From positions 1 to 9,864 of the IMG/VR virus record IMGVR_UViG_2663763339_000002: a DNA stretch of 9,864 bases; one strand, given 5' to 3'. Under the pieces are notes generated by a model. That model saw only the letters and a list, made by a program, of their open reading frames with translations. It had not been told where the DNA came from and did no database searches. The DNA is from a virus. Its lineage: Duplodnaviria > Heunggongvirae > Uroviricota > Caudoviricetes. Of this stretch, positions 1 through 9,864 are shown in pieces; the stretch's first letter is position 1, and every line of letters begins with the position of its first letter. The position numbers and the translations under genes were made by a program.

Positions 1-291
1 TTAACGTCGTAACCGCTCCGGCTTCTTCCAGTGGTAAGTAATTTTTTCTTTCTCCTGGTACATCTGCACGCGGCGACGGTAGGCCAGCAACTCGAGAACT
101 CTGGTTCGTATATCGCGCATATCCACGCCGTTAAGCTCGATACCGTCACGGCGCATCACCTCAGCCACCACACGCGCGTAATTTTCTGCTATCACGCTGT
201 CTGGCTGCGTGGCCTCCTGTTTGCCTGCTGCTTGGCTGGCTCCGGTAATGCGGCGAATCATTTTGAGCATTTCGGCTTCGGTCATTGTCAT
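1..291 (-). CDS. Hypothetical protein, 96 aa, translationally coupled to the upstream small-terminase gene
   Basis: ATG at 289-291 overlaps the TGA of the upstream gene (ATGA junction on the minus strand); stop TAA at 1-3. No motif recognised. Confidence 0.5.
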   Translation of the reverse strand: MTMTEAEMLKMIRRITGASQAAGKQEATQPDSVIAENYARVVAEVMRRDGIELNGVDMRDIRTRVLELLAYRRRVQMYQEKEKITYHWKKPERLRR

Positions 292-773
292 GCCTGTTTT
301 GCATCCTCATTCACTGCGTCATTTTTTACCATCCGGCTGATAATCTGATTACACAAATCATCAATAATTGACTGCACTCTGTTTACTGCCATCGGTTTAA
401 GCCCTGCATCACGTGCCAGAATACTGGGGAGTTTTGCCAGTTCCTTGCTTACGATTTTTCCCCATATAGCCATCTCTTTTCGCGCATCATCGGCGGGTAT
501 GAGTTGCGCCGTTTCCTGTTCGAACTTAAGACGCTCACGCTCAGACTGATACCAGGCTTTGCGCTCATGTGCATCCATTTCGCCTTCTGCAACCGGCGTT
601 GGTAATGCCAGAAATGCCGACACAATATCTGCCACCCGGTAGAGCTTTAACTTGTCATGTCCTCCGGCGGGCTGGATGTTTTGCAGTCTTGCCGCCGCAG
701 TCTGACGACATATTCCCGCTATCGCCGCCAGTTGGTTAATGTTCAGCATCAGATTTTTCAGTTCTCGATCCAT
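288..773 (-). CDS. Small terminase subunit, lambda Nu1-like N-terminal winged-HTH (alternatively a packaging-redirection protein of the same fold)
   Basis: Start re-picked at ATG 771-773 (MDRELKNL...), preceded by GGAGGGGG; the ORF-track start at 830 has no RBS. N-terminus LNINQLAAIAGICRQTAAARLQNIQPAGGHDKLKLY parallels Nu1 (QLADIFGASIRTIQNWQEQGMPVLRGGGKGNEVLY), recalled from memory. Confidence 0.65.
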   Translation of the reverse strand: MDRELKNLMLNINQLAAIAGICRQTAAARLQNIQPAGGHDKLKLYRVADIVSAFLALPTPVAEGEMDAHERKAWYQSERERLKFEQETAQLIPADDARKEMAIWGKIVSKELAKLPSILARDAGLKPMAVNRVQSIIDDLCNQIISRMVKNDAVNEDAKQA

Positions 774-926
774 ACCCCCTCCGGAATGTTTTAAACATGC
801 ATCTTGCGAACAACTTTCAGAAGAGGTCAAAAAATGTGCTATATGTTGAACACAAAATAAGCAAAATTAACATACCAAAAATAAAATTCGTTTAAATTCA
901 ATACATTGAAAAGATGATGATGATGA

Positions 927-1007
927 ATGAAAATGCAAAAACTAGCCTTTTTCCGCGCCGCTCCCGCCCCGTGGTAAGGCCACTACACCGGGAGGACCCG
1001 TAAAAAA
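927..1007. repeat. Copy A of a conserved 81-bp intergenic element (copy B at 3451-3532)
   Basis: Direct alignment of the two copies at a constant offset of 2524 gives 4 mismatches in 81 positions. Contains nested dyad CTCCCG...GTGG-N5-CCAC...CGGGAG. Confidence 0.85.
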
Positions 1008-1023
1008 GGCGGCTATCGCCGCC
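1002..1023 (-). terminator. Intrinsic terminator after the protease-capsid gene
   Basis: Minus-strand RNA reads GGCGGC-GAUA-GCCGCC followed by UUUUUU (plus-strand A6 at 1002-1007), 8 nt after the stop at 1031-1033. Confidence 0.6.
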
Positions 1024-1030
1024 CTTGTTG

Positions 1031-2947
1031 TCATGCTCCACTCGATTTCAGTAGTCCACGATAATCGAGGGCCGCAACACCTGCATCTATGCGCACCTTC
1101 CAGGCGACACCATCAACAGTAAAGCCCTCCTGCTCCTCGAGATATGGCGTATCAATACCATCAAGATAAGCGACCTCTATCGTGTCCATCCCTTTCGCTG
1201 CGGCTACATACCACTCCTTGTTATTGTTCTTATCAAGACGTGGCTCAACAATAACTTCAGCCATATCTTTCACCACGTTAATGATGCCTGGGTTCTGATT
1301 GATAGTGCCCTCACCATCAACCGGAAAGAGTGATGACGATGACAGAATGGCGCGATGTGCGGCAGACTCCAGCGCGGCGGGGACCAGGACAAATGCGGGG
1401 GTAATATTCAGCGAATCACCGTTAGCGTCCTCCTGGAGGCGCATTAGCTTACGGGCTTCGTTAAGTCCCTCCATGTCCATATCCTTCGCAATAAGATTTT
1501 TATGATCGGCATGGAATAGCGCCTTACCATCCGTGAATTTGCCATTGCCGGTTAACAGGAGATACACCAGATTACCTACTGTTCTGGCGGCTGCACGCCC
1601 CATCGCCATGGGGATTGTAGTTAACTGGGTCAGGTCATCGTTAATAATGGCCTGGCGGGTAACAGAAAAAATATTCCCGTATGTGGCCAGCGCAATAGGT
1701 ACGCCCTTGTCACTGGTAGTAATGTATTTATATTCCGCGCCTTCCGGTACTTTATCCAGTTTTGAAAAACCATTCAGGCCAACGCGTTTTGCCTCGTGAA
1801 AGTTTGAAAGCGATCCGCTACGCGTCCACTTCTGGAACGTTTCGCCGCTGTCCTGCCAGCCTTTCAGCACTGATTTTTCAGCACCGCCAGCCAGAATATG
1901 AGAAAAATCACTGCTGCTGTGTGTAAAAGCTGCATTAACGACCTGCGAACGATTTAAAAAACCGCCAACACTGATACCACGATCGACCAGTGACGCCTGG
2001 GCCATTTCAAAAAGGCTCATCATCGCGTAAGGATTGCCACGCTCAGGACGCTCATACCCAAGACGGGAATAAAGGCCCTGGCGAATCGCATCGCCTGTTA
2101 TGTTCCCGTTTCCGGCATAAATATGAGACGGGATATTTTTATTTGTTGGTGTGTGGTTTTTACCCATTTCGTTAAGCAGACGTTCCCGGGCCATTTCCAG
2201 CGTACAGGATGCATCTTCAAGGCACGACATTTTGATCCCGTCGTACTGGTTGCCGAACACGCTAAAAATTTCTTTAATGCCGTTAATGCGCTCCTGGTCG
2301 CCTGTAATGGTGTTTTTTGCCTGTGATTTCGGCGGGGTAATCATTCCCTTAATGGTTTCCGGCATATGTAAAAAATCTCCTGTGCGTTTCGATTCAATTC
2401 GCGCCATTACTCTGACAGATGGCAACAATTCATCAGCAAAACCGTGCTTAAGGCATTCTTTCCCGTCCATCCAGGTTTCATCTTCCAGCATGGCGGCAAT
2501 TTCCTGTGCTGATTTGCCCGTTTTTCTGGCATAAGCAGGGATTAACACGGTTTCCACTTTATCCAGCAAATCAGCATAATCACGCATATCGCCAGCATTT
2601 CCGCCAGAGATACCCCACGGCTTATGGATCATCATCATGGCGTTCTCCGGCATAACAACGCGATCGCCTGCCATTGCGACGACCGAAGCCATTGAAGCCG
2701 CCACGCCATCGATATAAACCGTAATGTCTGCCGGATGATTCCGTAGCAGGTTATAGATGGCGATGCCTTCAAACACGTCACCGCCAGGCGAATGGATCCG
2801 TAGGTCGATATGTGAAACATCGCCAAGGGCTTTCAGATCTTCCGAGAACTGCTTCGCGGTAATACCGAAGCCGCCAATTTCTTCATAGATGGATATCTCC
2901 ACCGTTCCACGCACATCCGCCGCCTTAATGGAAAACCATGTTTTCAT
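1031..2947 (-). CDS. Prohead maturation protease (ClpP/S49-like) fused to a phage major capsid protein, 638 aa
   Basis: N-terminal about 180 aa carry ClpP-like motifs (IDLRIHSPGG, GVAASMASVVAMAGD, MMMIHKPWG). The C-terminal roughly 400 aa are assigned as major capsid protein by position and overall resemblance, not by a named motif. RBS AGGAG before ATG 2945-2947. Confidence 0.85.
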   Translation of the reverse strand: MKTWFSIKAADVRGTVEISIYEEIGGFGITAKQFSEDLKALGDVSHIDLRIHSPGGDVFEGIAIYNLLRNHPADITVYIDGVAASMASVVAMAGDRVVMPENAMMMIHKPWGISGGNAGDMRDYADLLDKVETVLIPAYARKTGKSAQEIAAMLEDETWMDGKECLKHGFADELLPSVRVMARIESKRTGDFLHMPETIKGMITPPKSQAKNTITGDQERINGIKEIFSVFGNQYDGIKMSCLEDASCTLEMARERLLNEMGKNHTPTNKNIPSHIYAGNGNITGDAIRQGLYSRLGYERPERGNPYAMMSLFEMAQASLVDRGISVGGFLNRSQVVNAAFTHSSSDFSHILAGGAEKSVLKGWQDSGETFQKWTRSGSLSNFHEAKRVGLNGFSKLDKVPEGAEYKYITTSDKGVPIALATYGNIFSVTRQAIINDDLTQLTTIPMAMGRAAARTVGNLVYLLLTGNGKFTDGKALFHADHKNLIAKDMDMEGLNEARKLMRLQEDANGDSLNITPAFVLVPAALESAAHRAILSSSSLFPVDGEGTINQNPGIINVVKDMAEVIVEPRLDKNNNKEWYVAAAKGMDTIEVAYLDGIDTPYLEEQEGFTVDGVAWKVRIDAGVAALDYRGLLKSSGA

Positions 2948-3138
2948 AGCCAGGCTCCTAACGTTGCCTTGTACCAGTATTCAACCGCGCTGCGTGTGAT
3001 TTGTCCTTTCGTGGGTACTGGCATACCCGGGTGATTCTCTTTGATGAACTGCTGATAGCGTTCGATCTTCTCCATCGTTCCGGTGTCTATGTGCACAGTG
3101 GCACTTTTACCCGGCTTTCTGGTGTTGTTCTCTGGCAT
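2944..3138 (-). CDS. Small hypothetical protein, 64 aa, translationally coupled to the protease-capsid gene
   Basis: Start re-picked at ATG 3136-3138 (MPENNTRK...) preceded by GGAGG; ATGA overlap with the downstream start. Possible beta-strand-then-helix (TVHID...MEKIERYQQF). Confidence 0.5.
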   Translation of the reverse strand: MPENNTRKPGKSATVHIDTGTMEKIERYQQFIKENHPGMPVPTKGQITRSAVEYWYKATLGAWL

Positions 3139-3239
3139 AAATCCGCCTCCGTTTTGATTAACGGGCATCATTATTGATCGATAAAAGTGGTAGATAAACA
3201 TATTTCTATCATAAAAATAGATTAATCAGATTCAGACGC

Positions 3240-3263
3240 AAAAAAAGCCGGAAAAAATCCGGC
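3240..3263 (-). terminator. Intrinsic terminator-like hairpin inside the leader of the capsid unit (candidate attenuator)
   Basis: Minus-strand RNA reads GCCGGA-UUUUU-UCCGGC followed by U7 (plus-strand A7 at 3240-3246); about 100 nt upstream of the 64-aa gene start. Confidence 0.5.
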
Positions 3264-3450
3264 ATAAATATCCCGCCATCTGAACACGTTTTGATACAGG
3301 CAACTCCACCAGGCAGGTGAAAAACTGATTTATTTATATATTTCAATTAATTGCAAACTGGTCTAATGACAGGAGAGAAAAAAAATTGTACAGGTGAAGA
3401 CGGAAATAATTTTTAATTATCAATAAATTATCGCACATGCTGCCGCCGCC

Positions 3451-3532
3451 ATGAAAATACAAAAATCAGCCTTTTTCCGCGCCGCTCCCGCCCCGTGGTA
3501 AGGCCACTCCACCGGGAGGACCCGTAAAAAAA
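3451..3532. repeat. Copy B of the conserved 81-bp intergenic element
   Basis: See copy A; same orientation, abuts the terminator after ssb. Confidence 0.85.
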
Positions 3533-3548
3533 CCGGGAAAATCCCGGC
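3526..3548 (-). terminator. Intrinsic terminator after the ssb-like gene
   Basis: Minus-strand RNA reads CCGGGA-UUU-UCCCGG followed by U7 (plus-strand A7 at 3526-3532), 17 nt after the stop at 3565-3567. Confidence 0.55.
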
Positions 3549-3564
3549 TTCTGTCACTCGTTGC

Positions 3565-3987
3565 TTAAAACGGTATGTTATCCCCGTACGGATCATCATT
3601 TCCCGCCTGTTGTTTTGCCCTGTTCAGTGCATCAGTGGCCTGCCCCTGTTGGCCTTTTTTGCCGCCCGGTCGCGCCGTTCGCGCACTGATTACGCTGTCT
3701 GCGATAACCTGCCAGCCCTGCCGCGTTTCGCCGTTCTGGCCTGTCCACTGGCTTACCTGCATGTTACCCGCCACGCTCACGAGTTCGCCTTTGTGGTGCT
3801 TTGCCAGTGCGTCGGCCTGTCTGCCAAACGCCAGGACGGATAACCACATCGTCGCCGTTCCGTCATCGGCCTGGCTGCACGGCAGGGGAACCGCCATACT
3901 CGCCATCGCCATTTGTGTCCCTTTGCTGGTGGTCTTTAACTGCGGGTCAGCCACCAGCCGCCCGTAAGCCGCTATCTGTGCTGTCAT
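3565..3987 (-). CDS. ssb: Single-stranded DNA-binding protein (SSB-like), 140 aa
   Basis: N-terminal OB-fold pattern (IAAYGRLVADPQLKTTSKG; WTGQNGETRQGWQVIADSV) and C-terminal acidic tip ending DDPYGDNIPF, compare bacterial SSB DDDIPF. ATGA overlap with the upstream gene. Confidence 0.7.
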   Translation of the reverse strand: MTAQIAAYGRLVADPQLKTTSKGTQMAMASMAVPLPCSQADDGTATMWLSVLAFGRQADALAKHHKGELVSVAGNMQVSQWTGQNGETRQGWQVIADSVISARTARPGGKKGQQGQATDALNRAKQQAGNDDPYGDNIPF

Positions 3988-4235
3988 GCTGTCTGCTCTC
4001 CGGTTTTAACGTTGATGGTTGTCACCAGTTCCGCTTCGGCAATCTCCCGTTCTGTCAGCGTGGCAAAGTTTGCCGCCGCCGTGGTCATGAATGCGCTTAT
4101 CAGTTCGGGATGTGCTTTCGCGTATCCTTCTCCGGCGTGGCGGTCTATCGTTCTGATTGCCACCTTTAAGGCGTGCTCTGTCATGTCTAACGCTTTATAT
4201 TTTGGTGCTGTCTTATCTCTGGTTTTTCTTGTCAT
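3984..4235 (-). CDS. Hypothetical protein, 83 aa
   Basis: Start re-picked at ATG 4233-4235 (MTRKTRDK...); the longer track ORF to 4367 would translate the iteron repeats. Coupled to ssb by ATGA. Confidence 0.5.
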   Translation of the reverse strand: MTRKTRDKTAPKYKALDMTEHALKVAIRTIDRHAGEGYAKAHPELISAFMTTAAANFATLTEREIAEAELVTTINVKTGEQTA

Positions 4236-4237
4236 GC

Positions 4238-4448
4238 GCCCACCTGTGCCCACTTTTTCTGCCCACTTTTCATGGTTTCCCACTTCGTCCCACCTGGGAT
4301 TTTGTGGTTTTATATCGTACTGTTTCATAAGTATTTTTTTAGTGCCCACTTTTTGGGATGTATACACGTGGGAAAGTGGGCGATTTTGTTAAATTCCAGT
4401 TAAATTACCCACTACTCCCACTTTTAACGCCCACTTTTTACAGTGGGT
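4238..4448. repeat. Iteron cluster with AT-rich spacer: candidate origin of replication
   Basis: At least 8 direct copies of (G)CCCAC(TTTT) (starts about 4238, 4248, 4261, 4279, 4289, 4344, 4408, 4417, 4429) and inverted copies (GTGGG near 4368, 4376, 4444), with an AT-rich stretch at 4296-4340. Lies immediately 3' of rep. Confidence 0.6.
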
Positions 4449-5844
4449 GAACATCATCCCCATCGACGCAAATCACGCCGTCTTTTTCCAGTTTGGCTAA
4501 CCATCGTTTAAGGTGTTTTGTGTCATATCCCAGCTTTTTCATGTCATCACGTAGCAGCGGGATCGTACATTTATCACCATGCTGTATACGCGACCGGATA
4601 CAACCCCATAAAGCCGTGTGATTTTCCGTCTTGTTCCCGGCCTCCTCTATGCGCTCCAGTTCAGCAGGGGCGCGGGGAACGTCAATCACCACCATGGACA
4701 CAATCTCTTCGCCATCTGTATCGGTGAACACCTCCACGCTTTTAAGATCGTATGCACTCTCTTTTGGCTCCTCTGCGTCCTTCATCTTCGTACACGCCGC
4801 CACCAGTGCTGTAACCTCTGAATTTTCCCGGCTGATTCGGTACTCTGCATCAAGCGCGGCACGGAATGCGCTGGAACCGCGCGCCCCCTTTGTTTCATCC
4901 TTGCCGGAATGGTGAACCACCAGCACCGTGGCCCCTGTGGCCTGCTTTATCGCGTCACACCCCTGGATAAATGCGCCCATATCGCGGGAATCATTTTCAT
5001 CATTTCCACCAAAGCAACGGGCCAGCGTGTCGATCACAATCAGCCGCACATTTTCGCCCGTTCTGCTCTTAACAAGTCCGGCAGTCCTGATAACCTGCTC
5101 CACATAGTCAGGCGATGCGGGGAAGACAGGCGCGTTAACGATGCACAAATCTGTAACCACCTTGTCATGGGTTATCTCCCACGCCTTAACGCGGCGTTTT
5201 ACGCCTATACTGCCTTCGCCAGCGATATAGATAACAGCGCCCTTACTTACCCTGCGGCCTCCCCATGCCATACCTGTGGCAACATGGCACGACCAGGAAA
5301 TAGCCAGGAACGATTTATAAGAACCGCTGGCCCCGTAGGTGCTGCATAATGACTCAGCCGGAATAAGCCCCTTAATTACGTAGCTTTGCTGCGCGTCGAA
5401 TCCCTCAGAACCCCATGAGATGGGAAGTGTGATTTTTCGCTTTCCACCATTCATGACCAGACTTTCCCCGCGTTCCCAGGTTTCTTTAAGCCGCGGTAGT
5501 TGCTCGCTCCAGTCCTCCAGCAGTTCGAAATTCTCTGAAAGTAACCGTGCTTCCTGGACACCTGCGATCGCCAGTTTGGTGGCAATGGTCAGCATCTGCA
5601 TATCGTCCAGGTTTCCGGCGCGTATGACCTTTGCTCTGTATCGTCCTTCATCAACAATCTGTAAATTGTCCAGTTCGCTTAACTGATAACGGCCCAGGTA
5701 AACCGGAGGGATGGGATCGCCTGCTTTTTGGGCCTGTGCAATCATGTAATGTTCTGCAAAGGAGTGAGCATTATCACCCGCAAAAATAACCGCCTCAGTG
5801 TGTTTATCTTTCGGTAACAGTTTTACGTTCGGTGCCAGTTTCAT
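4438..5844 (-). CDS. Replication initiator, RecA-like (AAA_25-type) ATPase, 468 aa
   Basis: P-loop-like YGASGSYKS, Walker B-like VRLIVIDTL, sensor TVLVVHHSGKD; basic C-terminal region may be a DNA-binding domain. ATG 5842-5844 overlaps the upstream stop. Iterons directly downstream. Confidence 0.8.
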   Translation of the reverse strand: MKLAPNVKLLPKDKHTEAVIFAGDNAHSFAEHYMIAQAQKAGDPIPPVYLGRYQLSELDNLQIVDEGRYRAKVIRAGNLDDMQMLTIATKLAIAGVQEARLLSENFELLEDWSEQLPRLKETWERGESLVMNGGKRKITLPISWGSEGFDAQQSYVIKGLIPAESLCSTYGASGSYKSFLAISWSCHVATGMAWGGRRVSKGAVIYIAGEGSIGVKRRVKAWEITHDKVVTDLCIVNAPVFPASPDYVEQVIRTAGLVKSRTGENVRLIVIDTLARCFGGNDENDSRDMGAFIQGCDAIKQATGATVLVVHHSGKDETKGARGSSAFRAALDAEYRISRENSEVTALVAACTKMKDAEEPKESAYDLKSVEVFTDTDGEEIVSMVVIDVPRAPAELERIEEAGNKTENHTALWGCIRSRIQHGDKCTIPLLRDDMKKLGYDTKHLKRWLAKLEKDGVICVDGDDVHPL

Positions 5845-6155
5845 TTTGCCTTTCCCCGTTCACGAATAATTTCACGTACTGCCTTAATGCGTTCCATACC
5901 TGTAACGCGCATGATTCTGTCGATGTCGCTTAAGTCCGCTGGTGGTGCTTTGCTTACCAGGGTGAATTCACTCTCAAAACGCATATGTGACGACACGCAG
6001 GGATGCGCATAACCTTCGCGGATATATGTCACCCGATAAGCACTCACCGTTTTTACCGTTATCTGACTTCCGTAGTTATCCCGGAAAATATCGCCGGGGC
6101 GGATTTCAGGCCGAGCGGGGCCGCTGGCAGTAAAGCCAGAATTTTTCTTTTTCAT
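5841..6155 (-). CDS. Hypothetical protein, 104 aa
   Basis: ATG 6153-6155 with RBS-like AGAGGAA; coupled to rep by ATGA. Confidence 0.6.
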   Translation of the reverse strand: MKKKNSGFTASGPARPEIRPGDIFRDNYGSQITVKTVSAYRVTYIREGYAHPCVSSHMRFESEFTLVSKAPPADLSDIDRIMRVTGMERIKAVREIIRERGKAK

Positions 6156-6160
6156 GGTTT

Positions 6161-6370
6161 TTATTCCTCTGCGCGGGTCTTGTCGTGTATTTCCATAACC
6201 GCGTTTAATTCATCAATAACCGGGGTTAACAGAGTGCTGAAAGCAGAAAATAAATCCCCCCCCTGTTCGGCATGAACTTCGGTTAATTTAATTAATACCG
6301 CTTTCATTTCCAGTGCCCGGTTTAATGCATTCTCAGAATGAATAAGAACATCGAAAGGGATTTTATCCAT
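6161..6370 (-). CDS. Hypothetical protein, 69 aa
   Basis: ATG 6368-6370 preceded by GGAGGA; stop TAA at 6161-6163. Confidence 0.55.
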   Translation of the reverse strand: MDKIPFDVLIHSENALNRALEMKAVLIKLTEVHAEQGGDLFSAFSTLLTPVIDELNAVMEIHDKTRAEE

Positions 6371-6596
6371 GGCTTACATCCTCCGGGAATTTTCTTCTGT
6401 AACGCGCCTCTGCAACATATTCCGCATAGTCCGACGCAATATTGAGAATCTCCGCACCCTCTGACCTGTAGCCACTGGTACTGATAAGGAAAAATGCGGC
6501 TTTCATCATGCCGGCAACGCATAACAACGCATCGTCTGTATCTTCCGGTGCGCCATCAAATTCCTGTTTCATGGCATTAAAACGATCATCACGCAT
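6363..6596 (-). CDS. Hypothetical protein, about 77 aa (start uncertain; GTG 6612-6614 and ATG 6606-6608 are alternatives)
   Basis: The track ORF begins at a GTG; ATG 6594-6596 is preceded by a G-run that could act as an RBS. Overlaps both neighbouring genes by 8 nt. Confidence 0.45.
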   Translation of the reverse strand: MRDDRFNAMKQEFDGAPEDTDDALLCVAGMMKAAFFLISTSGYRSEGAEILNIASDYAEYVAEARYRRKFPEDVSHG

Positions 6597-6828
6597 AACC
6601 CCCCCCATTTTCACAATCAGTAATCAGGATGGCTTTAGCCTCATTCAGCGCCATATCAGCACTAAGTTGCATTACAGCCAGTGAGTGAGGAACGAAAGCC
6701 CCGGCATATTCTGTTTCAGTGGTGGCGTGCTTATGCGCTTTGTCTGCGATAACAGAAATATCAATCAGCGCATCCATCAGCGTTCTGATAGCTTCGGCGG
6801 CTGCGTCCGGACGGGTGTTATTGCACAT
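6589..6828 (-). CDS. Hypothetical protein, 79 aa
   Basis: ATG 6826-6828 preceded by strong RBS AGGAGG. Confidence 0.55.
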   Translation of the reverse strand: MCNNTRPDAAAEAIRTLMDALIDISVIADKAHKHATTETEYAGAFVPHSLAVMQLSADMALNEAKAILITDCENGGGYA

Positions 6829-7024
6829 GGCGTACCTCCTGACGAATACGGGCGGCGAATACCATCACGCAACCATCAGGAGATTGCTGGCGCGCTTCCT
6901 GTTCGCTGGTGGCCTCAATGGTAATCACGCGCGGTTGTGCCGTGCTCAGGGCGATAAAACGCCAGATGTATTTATTCAGGTTGTACGAGTCCCGCCCTTG
7001 CGGGTGTCTGGTATAATTTCTCAT
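6818..7024 (-). CDS. Hypothetical protein, 68 aa: the C-terminal part of the 354-aa track ORF; the rest of that ORF is judged spurious
   Basis: Internal ATG 7022-7024 preceded by GAGG; the downstream 68 aa have ordinary composition whereas the upstream part is Cys/Ser/Arg-rich and overlaps the plus-strand genes. Confidence 0.35.
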   Translation of the reverse strand: MRNYTRHPQGRDSYNLNKYIWRFIALSTAQPRVITIEATSEQEARQQSPDGCVMVFAARIRQEVRHVQ

Positions 7025-7104
7025 AGCTGCCTCGATACGCTTTCTATCGTTGGTAGTTAGACGCCCTGCATGTGTTGCGAGCACTGCGGGGCGTTGCTCT
7101 TTTA

Positions 7105-7156
7105 GGTGTATTTCACCTCTGCTTTTTAATTTACTCACTGGTGAAATACACTTCAA
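7105..7156. promoter_or_regulatory. Divergent control region: two inverted operator-like copies with a candidate minus-strand promoter
   Basis: GGTGTATTTCACC (7105-7117) and GGTGAAATACAC (7140-7151) are reverse complements and each is internally symmetric (GGTG-N5-CACC). Candidate minus-strand -35 TTGAAG (7151-7156) and -10 TAAATT (7128-7133) with a 17-bp spacer covering the second site. Confidence 0.45.
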
Positions 7157-7217
7157 GCCTTTTTTTATCATTTTTTTTGCGTATACTGACATACACCAAT
7201 TTTTAGGAGATCCAGAA

Positions 7218-7397
7218 ATGGCAACTGGTGCAAAGAACGCAAAATCACAAATGACAACTGTCAGAATCCCACATGAAGTAATGGATGATATTGAGCAACT
7301 TAAAGAACCTGGCGAAAGTACCGCTGGTTTTTTAGTTACTGCCGCAAAAGGCGAGATCAAACGCCGCCAGCGTCGCAAGGCCAAAGAGCAGGAGTAA
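7218..7397 (+). CDS. Small ribbon-helix-helix-like DNA-binding protein, 59 aa (candidate element regulator)
   Basis: ATG 7218-7220 preceded by AGGAGA; TTVRIPHEVMDDIEQL fits a beta-strand-then-helix pattern; basic tail KRRQRRKAKEQE. Fold is inferred, not searched. Confidence 0.6.
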   Translation: MATGAKNAKSQMTTVRIPHEVMDDIEQLKEPGESTAGFLVTAAKGEIKRRQRRKAKEQE

Positions 7398-7454
7398 CCA
7401 TCACCAGCGCCGTGGTGTGAGTAACTACGGCGCATTGCTATGCAGGACAACACA

Positions 7455-7628
7455 ATGACCGATAAAGAATTGACCAAAACATTATCACCGACACGGAAAA
7501 GACGGCGCAGAAAGATAGAGCATGAATCAGAAAGATTCGCGCCATGTGCTTTTGCCCTTGAGCAATTCCTTAAAGAGTACAGGGAAAAGCGCTCATTGCA
7601 GGTATGGCAACGAACTGAACCAGACTGA
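7455..7628 (+). CDS. Small basic hypothetical protein, 57 aa
   Basis: ATG 7455-7457 with AGGA 7 nt upstream (alternative ATG at 7440); RKRRRRK stretch; followed by a plus-strand terminator. Confidence 0.4.
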   Translation: MTDKELTKTLSPTRKRRRRKIEHESERFAPCAFALEQFLKEYREKRSLQVWQRTEPD

Positions 7629-7707
7629 TTGCATTGCCCACCAGCCGCAAATGTGGCATTGTTGGCGATGCTCATGCGTTGGGGATAACGCGAAATTTGT
7701 GTCGCAG

Positions 7708-7736
7708 GGCCACCGTGACTGGTGGCCTTTTCTTTG
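7708..7736 (+). terminator. Intrinsic terminator ending the plus-strand two-gene unit
   Basis: Perfect 7-bp stem GGCCACC / GGTGGCC with a 6-nt loop, followed by TTTTCTTTG. Confidence 0.6.
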
Positions 7737-7773
7737 CCTGTTATCCGGCAATAGTGGCGCTTCTTCACACAGT

Positions 7774-7856
7774 TGATATAATTCCCCTGCACTGATCCAA
7801 TTTTTTCGCAGCAGGTTAATTGTTCGCAAGGGCGCTCCGGTAACGGGGCGCTTTTT
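7774..7856 (+). ncRNA. Candidate small RNA unit: extended -10 promoter plus intrinsic terminator with no ORF between
   Basis: TGaTATAAT at 7774-7782; hairpin GCGCTCC-GGTAAC-GGGGCGC (7832-7851) followed by TTTTT; no ATG or GTG between. Convergent with the 3' end of alpA. Confidence 0.25.
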
Positions 7857-7886
7857 GTTATGTGCATCGCGTTACGCCTCACACCA

Positions 7887-8093
7887 TTACGCAGCCGTTC
7901 CGCGCGCTTCTTCCTCGCGCTCTTTCAGCCAGGCCAGCACTTCATCTTCATACCAGCCAACACGACGCAGACCGATTTTGAAGCCTTTCGGGAATTTTCC
8001 GGCGTTGATCATGTCCTGTAGCGAACTGTCTGCCTTGATGCGCAGAATATTTTTTACTTCCTGACGGGTAAGTATTTTTCTGATTGTTTCCAC
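7887..8093 (-). CDS. alpA: AlpA-family phage transcriptional regulator, 68 aa
   Basis: GTG start at 8091-8093 (no in-frame ATG covers the HTH). FPKGFKIGLRRVGWYEDEVLAWL matches the AlpA signature recalled from E. coli CP4-57 AlpA (VGWIEAEIDEWL). Confidence 0.8.
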   Translation of the reverse strand: METIRKILTRQEVKNILRIKADSSLQDMINAGKFPKGFKIGLRRVGWYEDEVLAWLKEREEEARGTAA

Positions 8094-8162
8094 TATGTTT
8101 TACCTCGTTAATCCGGCGTATTCCGGTGATAAATACGGTAAAACAGGGCAGGGCGGGAAAAA

Positions 8163-8194
8163 CAGTACCCACCGTTTTAAAACGGTACTCACTG
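8163..8194. promoter_or_regulatory. Palindromic operator-like site upstream of alpA
   Basis: Perfect 16-bp palindrome ACCGTTTTAAAACGGT (8171-8186) inside a larger imperfect dyad CAGTAC...GTACTCACTG. Confidence 0.4.
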
Positions 8195-8228
8195 TTTTTT
8201 ATCTCATTGATTACGCTTTTCTTTCTGC

Positions 8229-8258
8229 AAAAAAATAGCGACCGCAAGGGGCCGCTAT
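8229..8258 (-). terminator. Intrinsic terminator after the 80-aa ORF
   Basis: Minus-strand RNA forms an AUAGCGGCC...GGUCGCUAU hairpin followed by U7 (plus-strand A7 at 8229-8235), 5 nt after the stop at 8264-8266. Confidence 0.5.
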
Positions 8259-8263
8259 TGTGA

Positions 8264-8506
8264 TTACCGTTTCCACTTCTTAGGCCGCCCACCGCATTTA
8301 AGGCTGGTGGGTCTCAGCACCTTGTCGATGCTTTCAGCCAGGTTTTTCGATGCGCCACGTGAGCGCAAAAAACTGACTACCTCGTGTTTTGTGGGGGCTG
8401 TTGATTTGTCTTCCGGATCGTATGTTGACCAGAATTCACGATTTGCCATTAACGCCAGTTGCAGCCCTTCGCCGCAAGCAGGGGATACCTTTTCATTGAA
8501 AAACAC
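8264..8506 (-). CDS. Hypothetical protein, 80 aa, between integrase and alpA; basic C-terminus GRPKKWKR
   Basis: GTG start at 8504-8506 with AAGGAG 8 nt upstream (alternative ATG at 8447-8449 has no RBS); own terminator downstream. Confidence 0.5.
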   Translation of the reverse strand: MFFNEKVSPACGEGLQLALMANREFWSTYDPEDKSTAPTKHEVVSFLRSRGASKNLAESIDKVLRPTSLKCGGRPKKWKR

Positions 8507-8622
8507 CTGGATAGCTCCTTGAATTTCATGATTTGGGTGACTCCTCTCTGTATTGGGTGGGTTGTGGCGATTATACGATGGTTTAGCATGGTTTGCATCG
8601 CTTTTACTGGTTTTTTGTACAG

Positions 8623-9864
8623 TTACACGGCACGGATACCCCTTTTACCACTGGCTATGGTCACTCCGGTAGCTGCGGCCTCTACAAATTCCCCCCACCA
8701 GCGCATAAGCACCACGCGCTTTTCCAGGTAGTTACTTCGGTTATATGCTCGCCTTACCTCGTTTGTGTCCACGTGTGCGAGTGCGGCCTCGATTACGTCC
8801 GGCTCGAATCCTTCCTCGTTCGCTGCTGTACTGAATATGGCGCGTAATCCGTGAGACACCAGCACACCAGCGTAACCCATCCGGCGCAATGCGGCGTTAG
8901 CGGTCTGGCTGCTCATTGGCAGCATCGGGTTTTTAAGGCTGGGAAAAACGTGTTCCCTGTGTGCGCTGATTGGCTTCATGGTTTCCAGTACAGCCATAGC
9001 CTGACCGCAAAGGGGGATCACGTGGTCACGGCGCATCTTCATGCGTCCGGCTGGAATCGTCCATGTTTCGGCATCGAGATCTATTTCTTCCCAGCGTGCG
9101 GCGGCTGCTTCGGCTGGGCGTGCTACGGTCAGCAGTTGCCACTCAATCAGCAATCTGGTTTGCCGTTCTATGCTGGCGACCGATAAATCGTGCATTAGCT
9201 GCGGTAGCTGTTCCGGTCGGATGGTTGGCATGTGCTTTTTGGTGGGTGAGGGGAATGCCTTGCGGACGTTCGCGGCGGTGTTGATGTCAATCAGCCCACT
9301 GTTGGCAGCAAAATCCATCACTTCATTGATGCGTTGTAAAACGCGTTTCAGGGTTTCCAGGTTGCCGCGTGCTTTAATGGGTGTGAGTATCTCAACAAAG
9401 CGGCGAGCTGTGAGGGTATCTATTGGCGTGTTTCCGATGTACGGGAATACGTATTTTTCCAGGGATCGCCAGATATCCTTAATCGTGTTGTAAGCCAGAT
9501 TCTGGCCTTTTTTCATCTCGTACCAGTCCGAGGCAACTTTTTCGAACGTGTTGCCCTTTTTCCGACTCTCTGCTTCACGTTTCCGGCGTTCGTGGTCCTG
9601 TGGGTCAACTCCCTTCGCTATGAGTGACCTGTATTCATTCCGTCGTTCTCTGGCATCGGACAGGGAAACATCATTCAGCGATCCGAGGCTGATGATAGTC
9701 CGTTTTTTATCTGCCGGGCGGTAGTACGTAAAACGCCAGATTTTTGATCCGGAGGGTTTCACCAGAAGAAATAATCCTCCGCCATCCTGCAGGGTGTATT
9801 CCTTTTCCCCTGGTCGTGCGTTTTTGATCTCCGTAATAGTTAGTGGGGTGGTTTTTCGTGCCAT
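8623..9864 (-). CDS. int: Tyrosine site-specific integrase, P4 / CP4-57 IntA family, 413 aa
   Basis: N-terminus MARKTTPLTITEIKNARPGEKEYTLQDGGGLFLLVKPSGSKIWRFTYY is the typical arm-binding domain of P4-type integrases; catalytic-region motifs (TVARP, HGLRAIF, RAYNRSNY). ATG is the last 3 nt of the window. Confidence 0.9.
   Translation of the reverse strand: MARKTTPLTITEIKNARPGEKEYTLQDGGGLFLLVKPSGSKIWRFTYYRPADKKRTIISLGSLNDVSLSDARERRNEYRSLIAKGVDPQDHERRKREAESRKKGNTFEKVASDWYEMKKGQNLAYNTIKDIWRSLEKYVFPYIGNTPIDTLTARRFVEILTPIKARGNLETLKRVLQRINEVMDFAANSGLIDINTAANVRKAFPSPTKKHMPTIRPEQLPQLMHDLSVASIERQTRLLIEWQLLTVARPAEAAAARWEEIDLDAETWTIPAGRMKMRRDHVIPLCGQAMAVLETMKPISAHREHVFPSLKNPMLPMSSQTANAALRRMGYAGVLVSHGLRAIFSTAANEEGFEPDVIEAALAHVDTNEVRRAYNRSNYLEKRVVLMRWWGEFVEAAATGVTIASGKRGIRAV

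Follow-up and report, generated by a model that had tools for sequence, protein, structure and literature searches.

RepA-type helicases are characterized by a residue set comprising a motif 1a Glu, a Walker B Asp, a motif H3 His, and an arginine finger (PMC8965321). In the Walker A motif, the backbone of residues 4-7 takes up alpha-R and alpha-L conformations in alternation, and position 6, which precedes the Lys, is exclusively Gly in a PDB-wide data set (PMC11959459). The protein considered here, Rep, departs from this rule by carrying a Tyr at that position. Rep is a 468-aa helicase of the RepA type (AAA_25, RecA fold) and a presumed initiator, encoded by rep at 4438..5844 on the minus strand of a 9,864-nucleotide stretch of viral DNA (IMG/VR record IMGVR_UViG_2663763339_000002, positions 1 to 9,864), hereafter called the window. 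The protein is already annotated and belongs to a known family (RefSeq WP_032214701.1, 'helicase RepA family protein'). What is new is how widespread and how well conserved the aromatic Walker A variant is, along with the tentative assignment of the N-terminal domain and the delineation of the origin. Rep is probably a helicase of the RepA/DnaB superfamily (superfamily 4, SF4, RecA fold) with a lineage-specific Walker A, serving as the replication protein of a ~10-kb satellite of the phage-inducible chromosomal island (PICI) type.

In sequence (E=5.7e-5) and profile (E=3.2e-12) searches, the only solved relative of Rep to emerge is RSF1010 RepA (1g8y, 1nlf, 1olo), which has in common with it the RecA-fold core and the order of the motifs (Walker A Lys, 1a Glu, Walker B Asp, HH, Arg). 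However, RSF1010 RepA displays a canonical GGAGKS where Rep displays GSYKS. Moreover, RSF1010 RepA is a bare 279-aa core, whereas Rep adds a tentative Toprim-like N-terminal domain, a linker signature, a predicted winged-helix C-terminal domain, and adjoining iterons. In T7 gp4 and mitochondrial Twinkle, a Toprim primase domain is fused to a RecA-fold SF4 helicase. Unlike them, Rep lacks a Zn ribbon, the conserved Glu or DxD, and any sequence-level Toprim signal, and it possesses an additional C-terminal DNA-binding-like domain as well as the Tyr in place of Gly in Walker A.

A replicative helicase without a Gly right before the Walker Lys is not unprecedented. In the Walker A of minichromosome maintenance (MCM) helicases, Ala or Ser replaces the second Gly, and these hexameric replicative enzymes are active without it, which recalls the loop of Rep. 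Nevertheless, MCM proteins are AAA+ enzymes with a small residue at this place, whereas Rep combines a RecA fold with a bulky aromatic one. As for genomic organization, the nearest described systems are the replication modules of PICIs, found in the Staphylococcus aureus pathogenicity islands (SaPIs) and in enterobacterial PICIs, in which a pri-rep gene stands next to an iteron origin. Here, a presumed iteron origin directly follows rep, and its repeats change along with Rep. The helicase of the window is of the RepA/AAA_25 type, whereas sister islands encode, at the same locus and with the same N-terminal domain, a DUF927/'DNA primase family' protein.

The first-pass annotation had singled out GASGSYKS as the sole P-loop-like motif of Rep, with a Tyr for a Gly, and this is borne out. 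The motif (aa 171-178, 5311..5334, minus strand) retains the canonical Lys177 and Ser178, the second conserved Gly of GxxxxGK[ST] being replaced by Tyr176, encoded by a TAT codon at 5317-5319. A motif scan of the whole 468-aa protein found no other [AG]xxxxGK[ST] and no GK[ST] of any kind elsewhere, and none of the remaining K[ST] sites of Rep lies in a Gly-rich context. Despite this deviation from the canonical Walker A, the affiliation to AAA_25 and RSF1010 RepA is supported by profile matches over the RecA-like core, the Pfam AAA_25 hit covering aa 146-317 with an E-value of 3.4e-43 and 148 bits vs a cut-off of 27. In the phmmer alignment of Rep with RSF1010 RepA (1g8y) from the PDB, 'ygasgsyks' pairs with 'vspggagks', so that Tyr176 is matched to the GKS glycine. 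Alignment with the AAA_25 and RepA families had been proposed as a check, and every such alignment locates Walker A at aa 171-178 and nowhere else.

The Walker B-like and sensor-like motifs had been judged normal, rightly so, as Rep carries the whole residue set of RepA-type helicases. Relatives were collected at E <=0.001 among 1.8 billion cluster representatives, giving 31,821 proteins, the best 150 of which were aligned to the helicase core and underlie the family counts given below. Motif 1a (IYIAGEGS, 5209..5232, minus strand), opposite 'IYLPAED' of RepA, contains the catalytic Glu210, a Glu being found in 147 of the 150 aligned representatives. The Walker B motif LIVIDTL (5023..5043, minus strand), facing 'LMVLDTL', provides Asp272 (D in 148/150), and motif H3, LVVHHSGK (4900..4923, minus strand), facing 'IVFLHHASK', provides His311/His312 (H in 148/150). 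Finally, ARGSSAFR (4861..4884, minus strand) is a candidate arginine finger region, in which Arg322 is near-invariant (146/150) and position 328, an Arg in Rep, is either R or K.

At 50% clustering, the residue preceding the Walker Lys (Walker A position 6) could be tallied in 147 representatives: Gly occurs in 55, Tyr in 45, Phe in 34, Leu in 7, Cys and Arg in 2 each, and Thr and Ser once each. The first-pass annotation had left a choice between a Walker A that is non-canonical in this family and an altered ATP binding. The former is supported, with Tyr or Phe in 79 of the 147, the distant relatives and RSF1010 RepA having Gly. Because 92 of the 147, otherwise clear members of the family, deviate from the canonical Walker A as Rep does, this motif does not delimit the family. 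The nearest relatives almost all carry Tyr or Phe and the farther ones mostly Gly, whereas Lys177, Ser/Thr178, Glu210, Asp272, His311/312, and Arg322 hardly vary in either the Y/F type or the G type. Judging from the aligned sequences, the lineage-specific Walker A consensus is G-x-[SP]-G-x-[YF]-K-S.

The aromatic residue travels with other features of the clade. Thus, a linker signature just ahead of the helicase core, LPxxxG[SF]xG[YF]D (LPISWGSEGFD in Rep, aa 140-150, 5395..5427, minus strand), is present in 61 of 89 non-Gly vs 2 of 52 Gly representatives, and Pro162 together with small residues at position 212, just past the catalytic Glu, co-occurs with the aromatic P-loop as clade-specific features. 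These associations may be due to a common ancestry and not to compensation. A rough neighbour-joining/Fitch reconstruction, resting on ~190 columns and a weak tree, requires at least 21 changes of state among Gly, aromatic, and other residues, and position 6 would therefore be evolutionarily labile in the family rather than fixed once. On the same rough tree, a single origin of the aromatic state is not supported.

The variant is not restricted to one protein architecture. Pfam scans of 89 non-Gly members revealed architectures typical of replication proteins, with 19 in which a DnaB N-terminal domain precedes AAA_25, three (P0121, P0123, and P0125) with a Zn_Ribbon_Prim + Toprim_3 + AAA_25 arrangement, P0121 being 61% identical to the helicase domain of the window, and a further architecture combining Prim-Pol/PriCT_2 with AAA_25. 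Among named phages, the primase/helicase of the lytic Jerseyvirus SalM-TTS6 carries GESGTYKSF, a DnaB-like helicase of a Vibrio phage carries GPGGSYKSF, and gp147 of mycobacteriophage Wanda carries GRWGTSKSF. Three proteins considered as possible characterized Y-type examples, namely gp43 of corynephage BFK20, the protein of Caulobacter phage GB2A, and gp56 of mycobacteriophage Saguaro, all proved to have the canonical Gly. A literature search for a published description of the P-loop variant, including the strings GSYKS, GSFKS, and GTYKS, returned no relevant paper, and no assayed member was found. No solved structure was found within the Y/F clade either, the PDB profile search matching RSF1010 RepA only.

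How should the Tyr be interpreted? It is hardly credible that it stems from a sequencing error or a pseudogene lesion, or that the true Walker A stands elsewhere in the protein. Assembly errors do exist in the region, as indicated by two homopolymer differences from RefSeq elsewhere in the window, but both indels (~6256-6263 and ~9737-9741) are outside rep, Rep contains no other Gly-rich K[ST], and all alignments agree. Furthermore, among the 120 listed close homologues (54-99% identity), 114 display GASGSYKS and 6 display GPSGSYKS. Across three elements whose Reps are 54-63% identical, the P-loop codons differ (GGG/GGC, TCT/AGC/TCC, AAA/AAG, TCG/AGC/TCA), the changes being synonymous and leaving the peptide unchanged. 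As 120 of 120 homologues keep G[AP]SGSYKS while the surrounding codons vary synonymously, the motif is beyond chance and neither an error nor a sign of decay. A functional alternative is that Tyr176 cripples nucleotide binding, making Rep a pseudo-ATPase whose only role would be to tag the origin and bring in DnaB from the host or a helicase from the helper phage. The exclusive occurrence of Gly at position 6 in solved P-loop NTPases (PMC11959459) speaks in its favor, as does the fact that the island has its own single-stranded DNA-binding protein (SSB) and would depend on a helper for other functions. However, the catalytic residues of a dead ATPase would be expected to drift, whereas they are near-invariant in the 147 representatives, of the Y/F and G types alike, and the P-loop itself varies only synonymously. 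In addition, the primase-helicase fusions examined, that of the lytic Jerseyvirus among them, show no helicase domain other than the Y/F-type one. We consider this alternative unlikely. Indeed, since Lys177, Ser/Thr178, Glu210, Asp272, His312, and Arg322 are near-invariant in both types, a loss of ATPase activity in Rep appears unlikely, and the invariance of the catalytic residues, together with the occurrence of the variant in the only helicase domain of a lytic-phage primase/helicase, suggests that a Tyr/Phe loop is compatible with ATP hydrolysis.

If the enzyme is active, the aromatic residue may still be more than neutral. It could be adaptive, altering the chemistry or the regulation of the site through nucleotide preference, the rate of ADP release, or the coupling with the arginine finger of the neighboring subunit. 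The dominance of Tyr and Phe in a large block of the family, where small or aliphatic residues are rare, and their co-occurrence with the LPxxxG[SF]xG[YF]D linker, the small residue at 212, and Pro162 fit such a role. Yet the number of changes demanded by the rough reconstruction and the presence of Leu, Cys, Arg, Ser, and Thr at the same position give the impression of a tolerant rather than a finely tuned site, and the co-occurring features are possibly a mere trace of common descent, so that an adaptive role is rather improbable. As judged from sequence, Rep is most likely an active RepA-type helicase. The full-length AlphaFold2 (AF2) model of Rep, computed on an alignment of 25 sequences, has a predicted local distance difference test score (pLDDT) below 50 in the helicase core and the P-loop, including aa 129-174, which is too low for the geometry of Tyr176 to be inferred. 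A Foldseek comparison of the model with the PDB gave weak RecA-family matches.

As an active helicase, Rep would operate through the same site as RSF1010 RepA. Phosphate and Mg2+ binding would fall to Lys177 and Ser178, and water activation to Glu210. Asp272, His312, and an Arg acting in trans (Arg322 or Arg328) would make up the rest of the site where subunits of a presumed hexamer meet. Tyr176 would be accommodated by the local structure of this lineage without disabling the P-loop. The C-terminal domain, predicted to be a winged helix, would read the RGTGGG iterons situated at the stop codon, after which the RecA core would load and unwind. The N-terminal domain would probably be a non-catalytic remnant, as in animal Twinkle, with priming left to the host or the helper.

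The N-terminal region had been described as an unassigned domain of roughly 190 aa. It does remain unassigned at the sequence level, as Pfam returns no match, but its size has to be revised: since the core of the helicase extends from about aa 146 onwards, this part consists of a domain of ~125 aa followed by a linker of ~20 aa. The domain (aa 1-125, 5470..5844, minus strand) has an alpha/beta composition and is tentatively regarded as a catalytically degenerate Toprim-like fold. The Toprim catalytic residues, i.e., a Glu after strand 1 and a DxD after strand 3, are missing from it, as is a Zn ribbon. Indeed, its 'IFAG' sequence has an invariant Ala22 where relatives show 'AEG', and residues 78-81, past strand 3, are not conserved. 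Searching Pfam with the isolated domain at E <=10 gave no match, including to Zn ribbon and Toprim families. With hhalign, the Toprim domains of the closest relatives of primase-helicase type gave no significant match (10 columns, probability 0.7%). A fold search in BFVD returned only an uncharacterized 112-aa phage protein (E=4e-4).

The same 125-aa domain is also the N-terminal part of DUF927/'DNA primase family' proteins in enterobacterial sister islands (P0285, P0301, and others). In the E. coli islands H9 and H10, such a protein replaces the RepA-type helicase between flanks that are otherwise 95% identical. The bare domain is labelled 'DNA primase' in many database entries, although it lacks the Toprim catalytic residues. 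These labels probably originate from the presence of the domain at the head of the DUF927/'DNA primase family' proteins, and in Rep the label finds no support in the sequence.

At the other end of the protein, the C-terminal domain (aa 397-468, 4441..4656, minus strand) is modelled as a helix-helix-helix-strand-strand succession (AF2 pLDDT 81-91), a predicted winged-helix topology, and is the presumed reader of the iterons. Sequence searches with this domain gave only a non-significant match to MCM5_C in Pfam at E <=10 (E=0.21) and nothing in the PDB, and a fold search on it did not confirm the winged helix.

The presumed origin (4239..4447) extends from the rep stop codon onwards and contains 11 copies of the RGTGGG iteron, five of them being exact AAAGTGGGC, in direct and inverted orientation around AT-rich stretches. 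These 11 copies are gathered in 216 bp vs 9 copies in the other 9648 bp of the window, when 0.2 would be expected in a 216-bp stretch (P ~5e-16). Two related elements have a matching layout at the rep stop codon, with a repeat of their own: in L010, whose Rep is 63% identical, the array spans 7400-7604 and the repeat is AAAAGTGAGG, and in L008, whose Rep is 54% identical, it spans 7418-7611 and the repeat is AAGTGCGGCA. Repeats and an AT-rich segment beside rep, with a repeat specific to each Rep variant, are the marks of an iteron-type origin. The arrangement is that expected for an initiator-helicase with its cognate iteron origin, to which Rep would presumably bind.

The gene directly upstream of rep encodes a DUF4222 protein (5841..6155, minus strand), and its stop codon overlaps the rep start (ATGA). 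A DUF4222 gene also stands ahead of rep in L008 and L010, a conserved partnership that suggests translational coupling with Rep. On the other side of the origin are a small ORF (3984-4235, minus strand) and the SSB gene (3565..3987, minus strand), the latter belonging to the same replication module as rep. Between the SSB gene and the capsid operon, the region 3200-3560 displays a low GC content (~41%) and AT-rich inverted repeats, e.g., 3328-3352 / 3404-3428, and may have a promoter/regulatory or a packaging function.

The core set of PICIs includes an integrase, an AlpA-type regulator, a primase/replicase, a capsid-related gene, and a small terminase, within ~10 kb and without tail or lysis genes (PMC10085698). 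The island examined here has this gene content, and the window covers nearly all of its ~10 kb, bounded by tRNA-Pro/yejM on one side and yejO on the other. Besides rep, the window encodes, all on the minus strand, the integrase (8623-9864), the AlpA-type regulator (7887-8093), Icd-like and other small genes, a ClpP-protease/major-capsid fusion (1031-2947), and a DUF1441 protein (288-773) with matches to small-terminase PHROGs. By its gene content, the island is thus a PICI-type phage satellite located at tRNA-Pro.

The window matches the chromosome of E. coli RM8082 (NZ_CP043825.1) save for two single-base homopolymer differences, which appear as insertions at ~6256-6263 (C8 vs C7) and ~9737-9741 (T5 vs T4). 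The integrase ORF is intact in the window (413 aa) and annotated as 'frameshifted' in RefSeq, and the poly-C difference alters a small ORF at 6161-6370. The interval 6818-7882 (minus strand) holds a GTG-initiated ORF of 354 aa, where RefSeq has a series of small genes (Icd-like, a partial icd-like pseudogene, and, on the opposite strand, YlcI/YnfO). This ORF is unlikely to be one genuine gene.

Among islands with a common int-AlpA-DUF4222-rep-ori arm, the capsid/packaging arms differ. In the window, this arm (288-2947) consists of the ClpP-protease/major capsid protein fusion and the DUF1441 small terminase (TerS)-like gene. In L010, it carries lambda gpE/gpD/Nu1-like genes (8955-11374), and in L008 (7854-13419), an HK97-like capsid, an S78 protease, a portal, and tail-related genes. 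These differences amount to modular exchange between satellite types.

For the island, the complete replication module is now defined as DUF4222, the presumed initiator-helicase, the presumed iteron origin, and the SSB. For the family, the implications reach further, as the glycine of GK[ST] is treated as near-obligatory, and motif-based annotation as well as 'dead ATPase' calls depend on it. A regex-style test for Walker A would wrongly mark as inactive the Y/F helicases of phages, satellites, and mobile elements, including that of a lytic Salmonella phage. The Y/F clade also provides a natural experiment on the tolerance of the P-loop nest. It is conceivable, albeit doubtful for now, that the RepA helicases of the Y/F type constitute a large natural group of P-loop NTPases that are active with a bulky aromatic residue in the place normally kept for an alpha-L glycine. 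If so, the nest would contain a strained Tyr, or else the phosphate-binding loop would have been re-shaped. The ring might contribute to catalysis or couple adjacent subunits at the hexamer interface, and in that case a single solved structure would revise the accepted rules for the sequence and geometry of P-loops.
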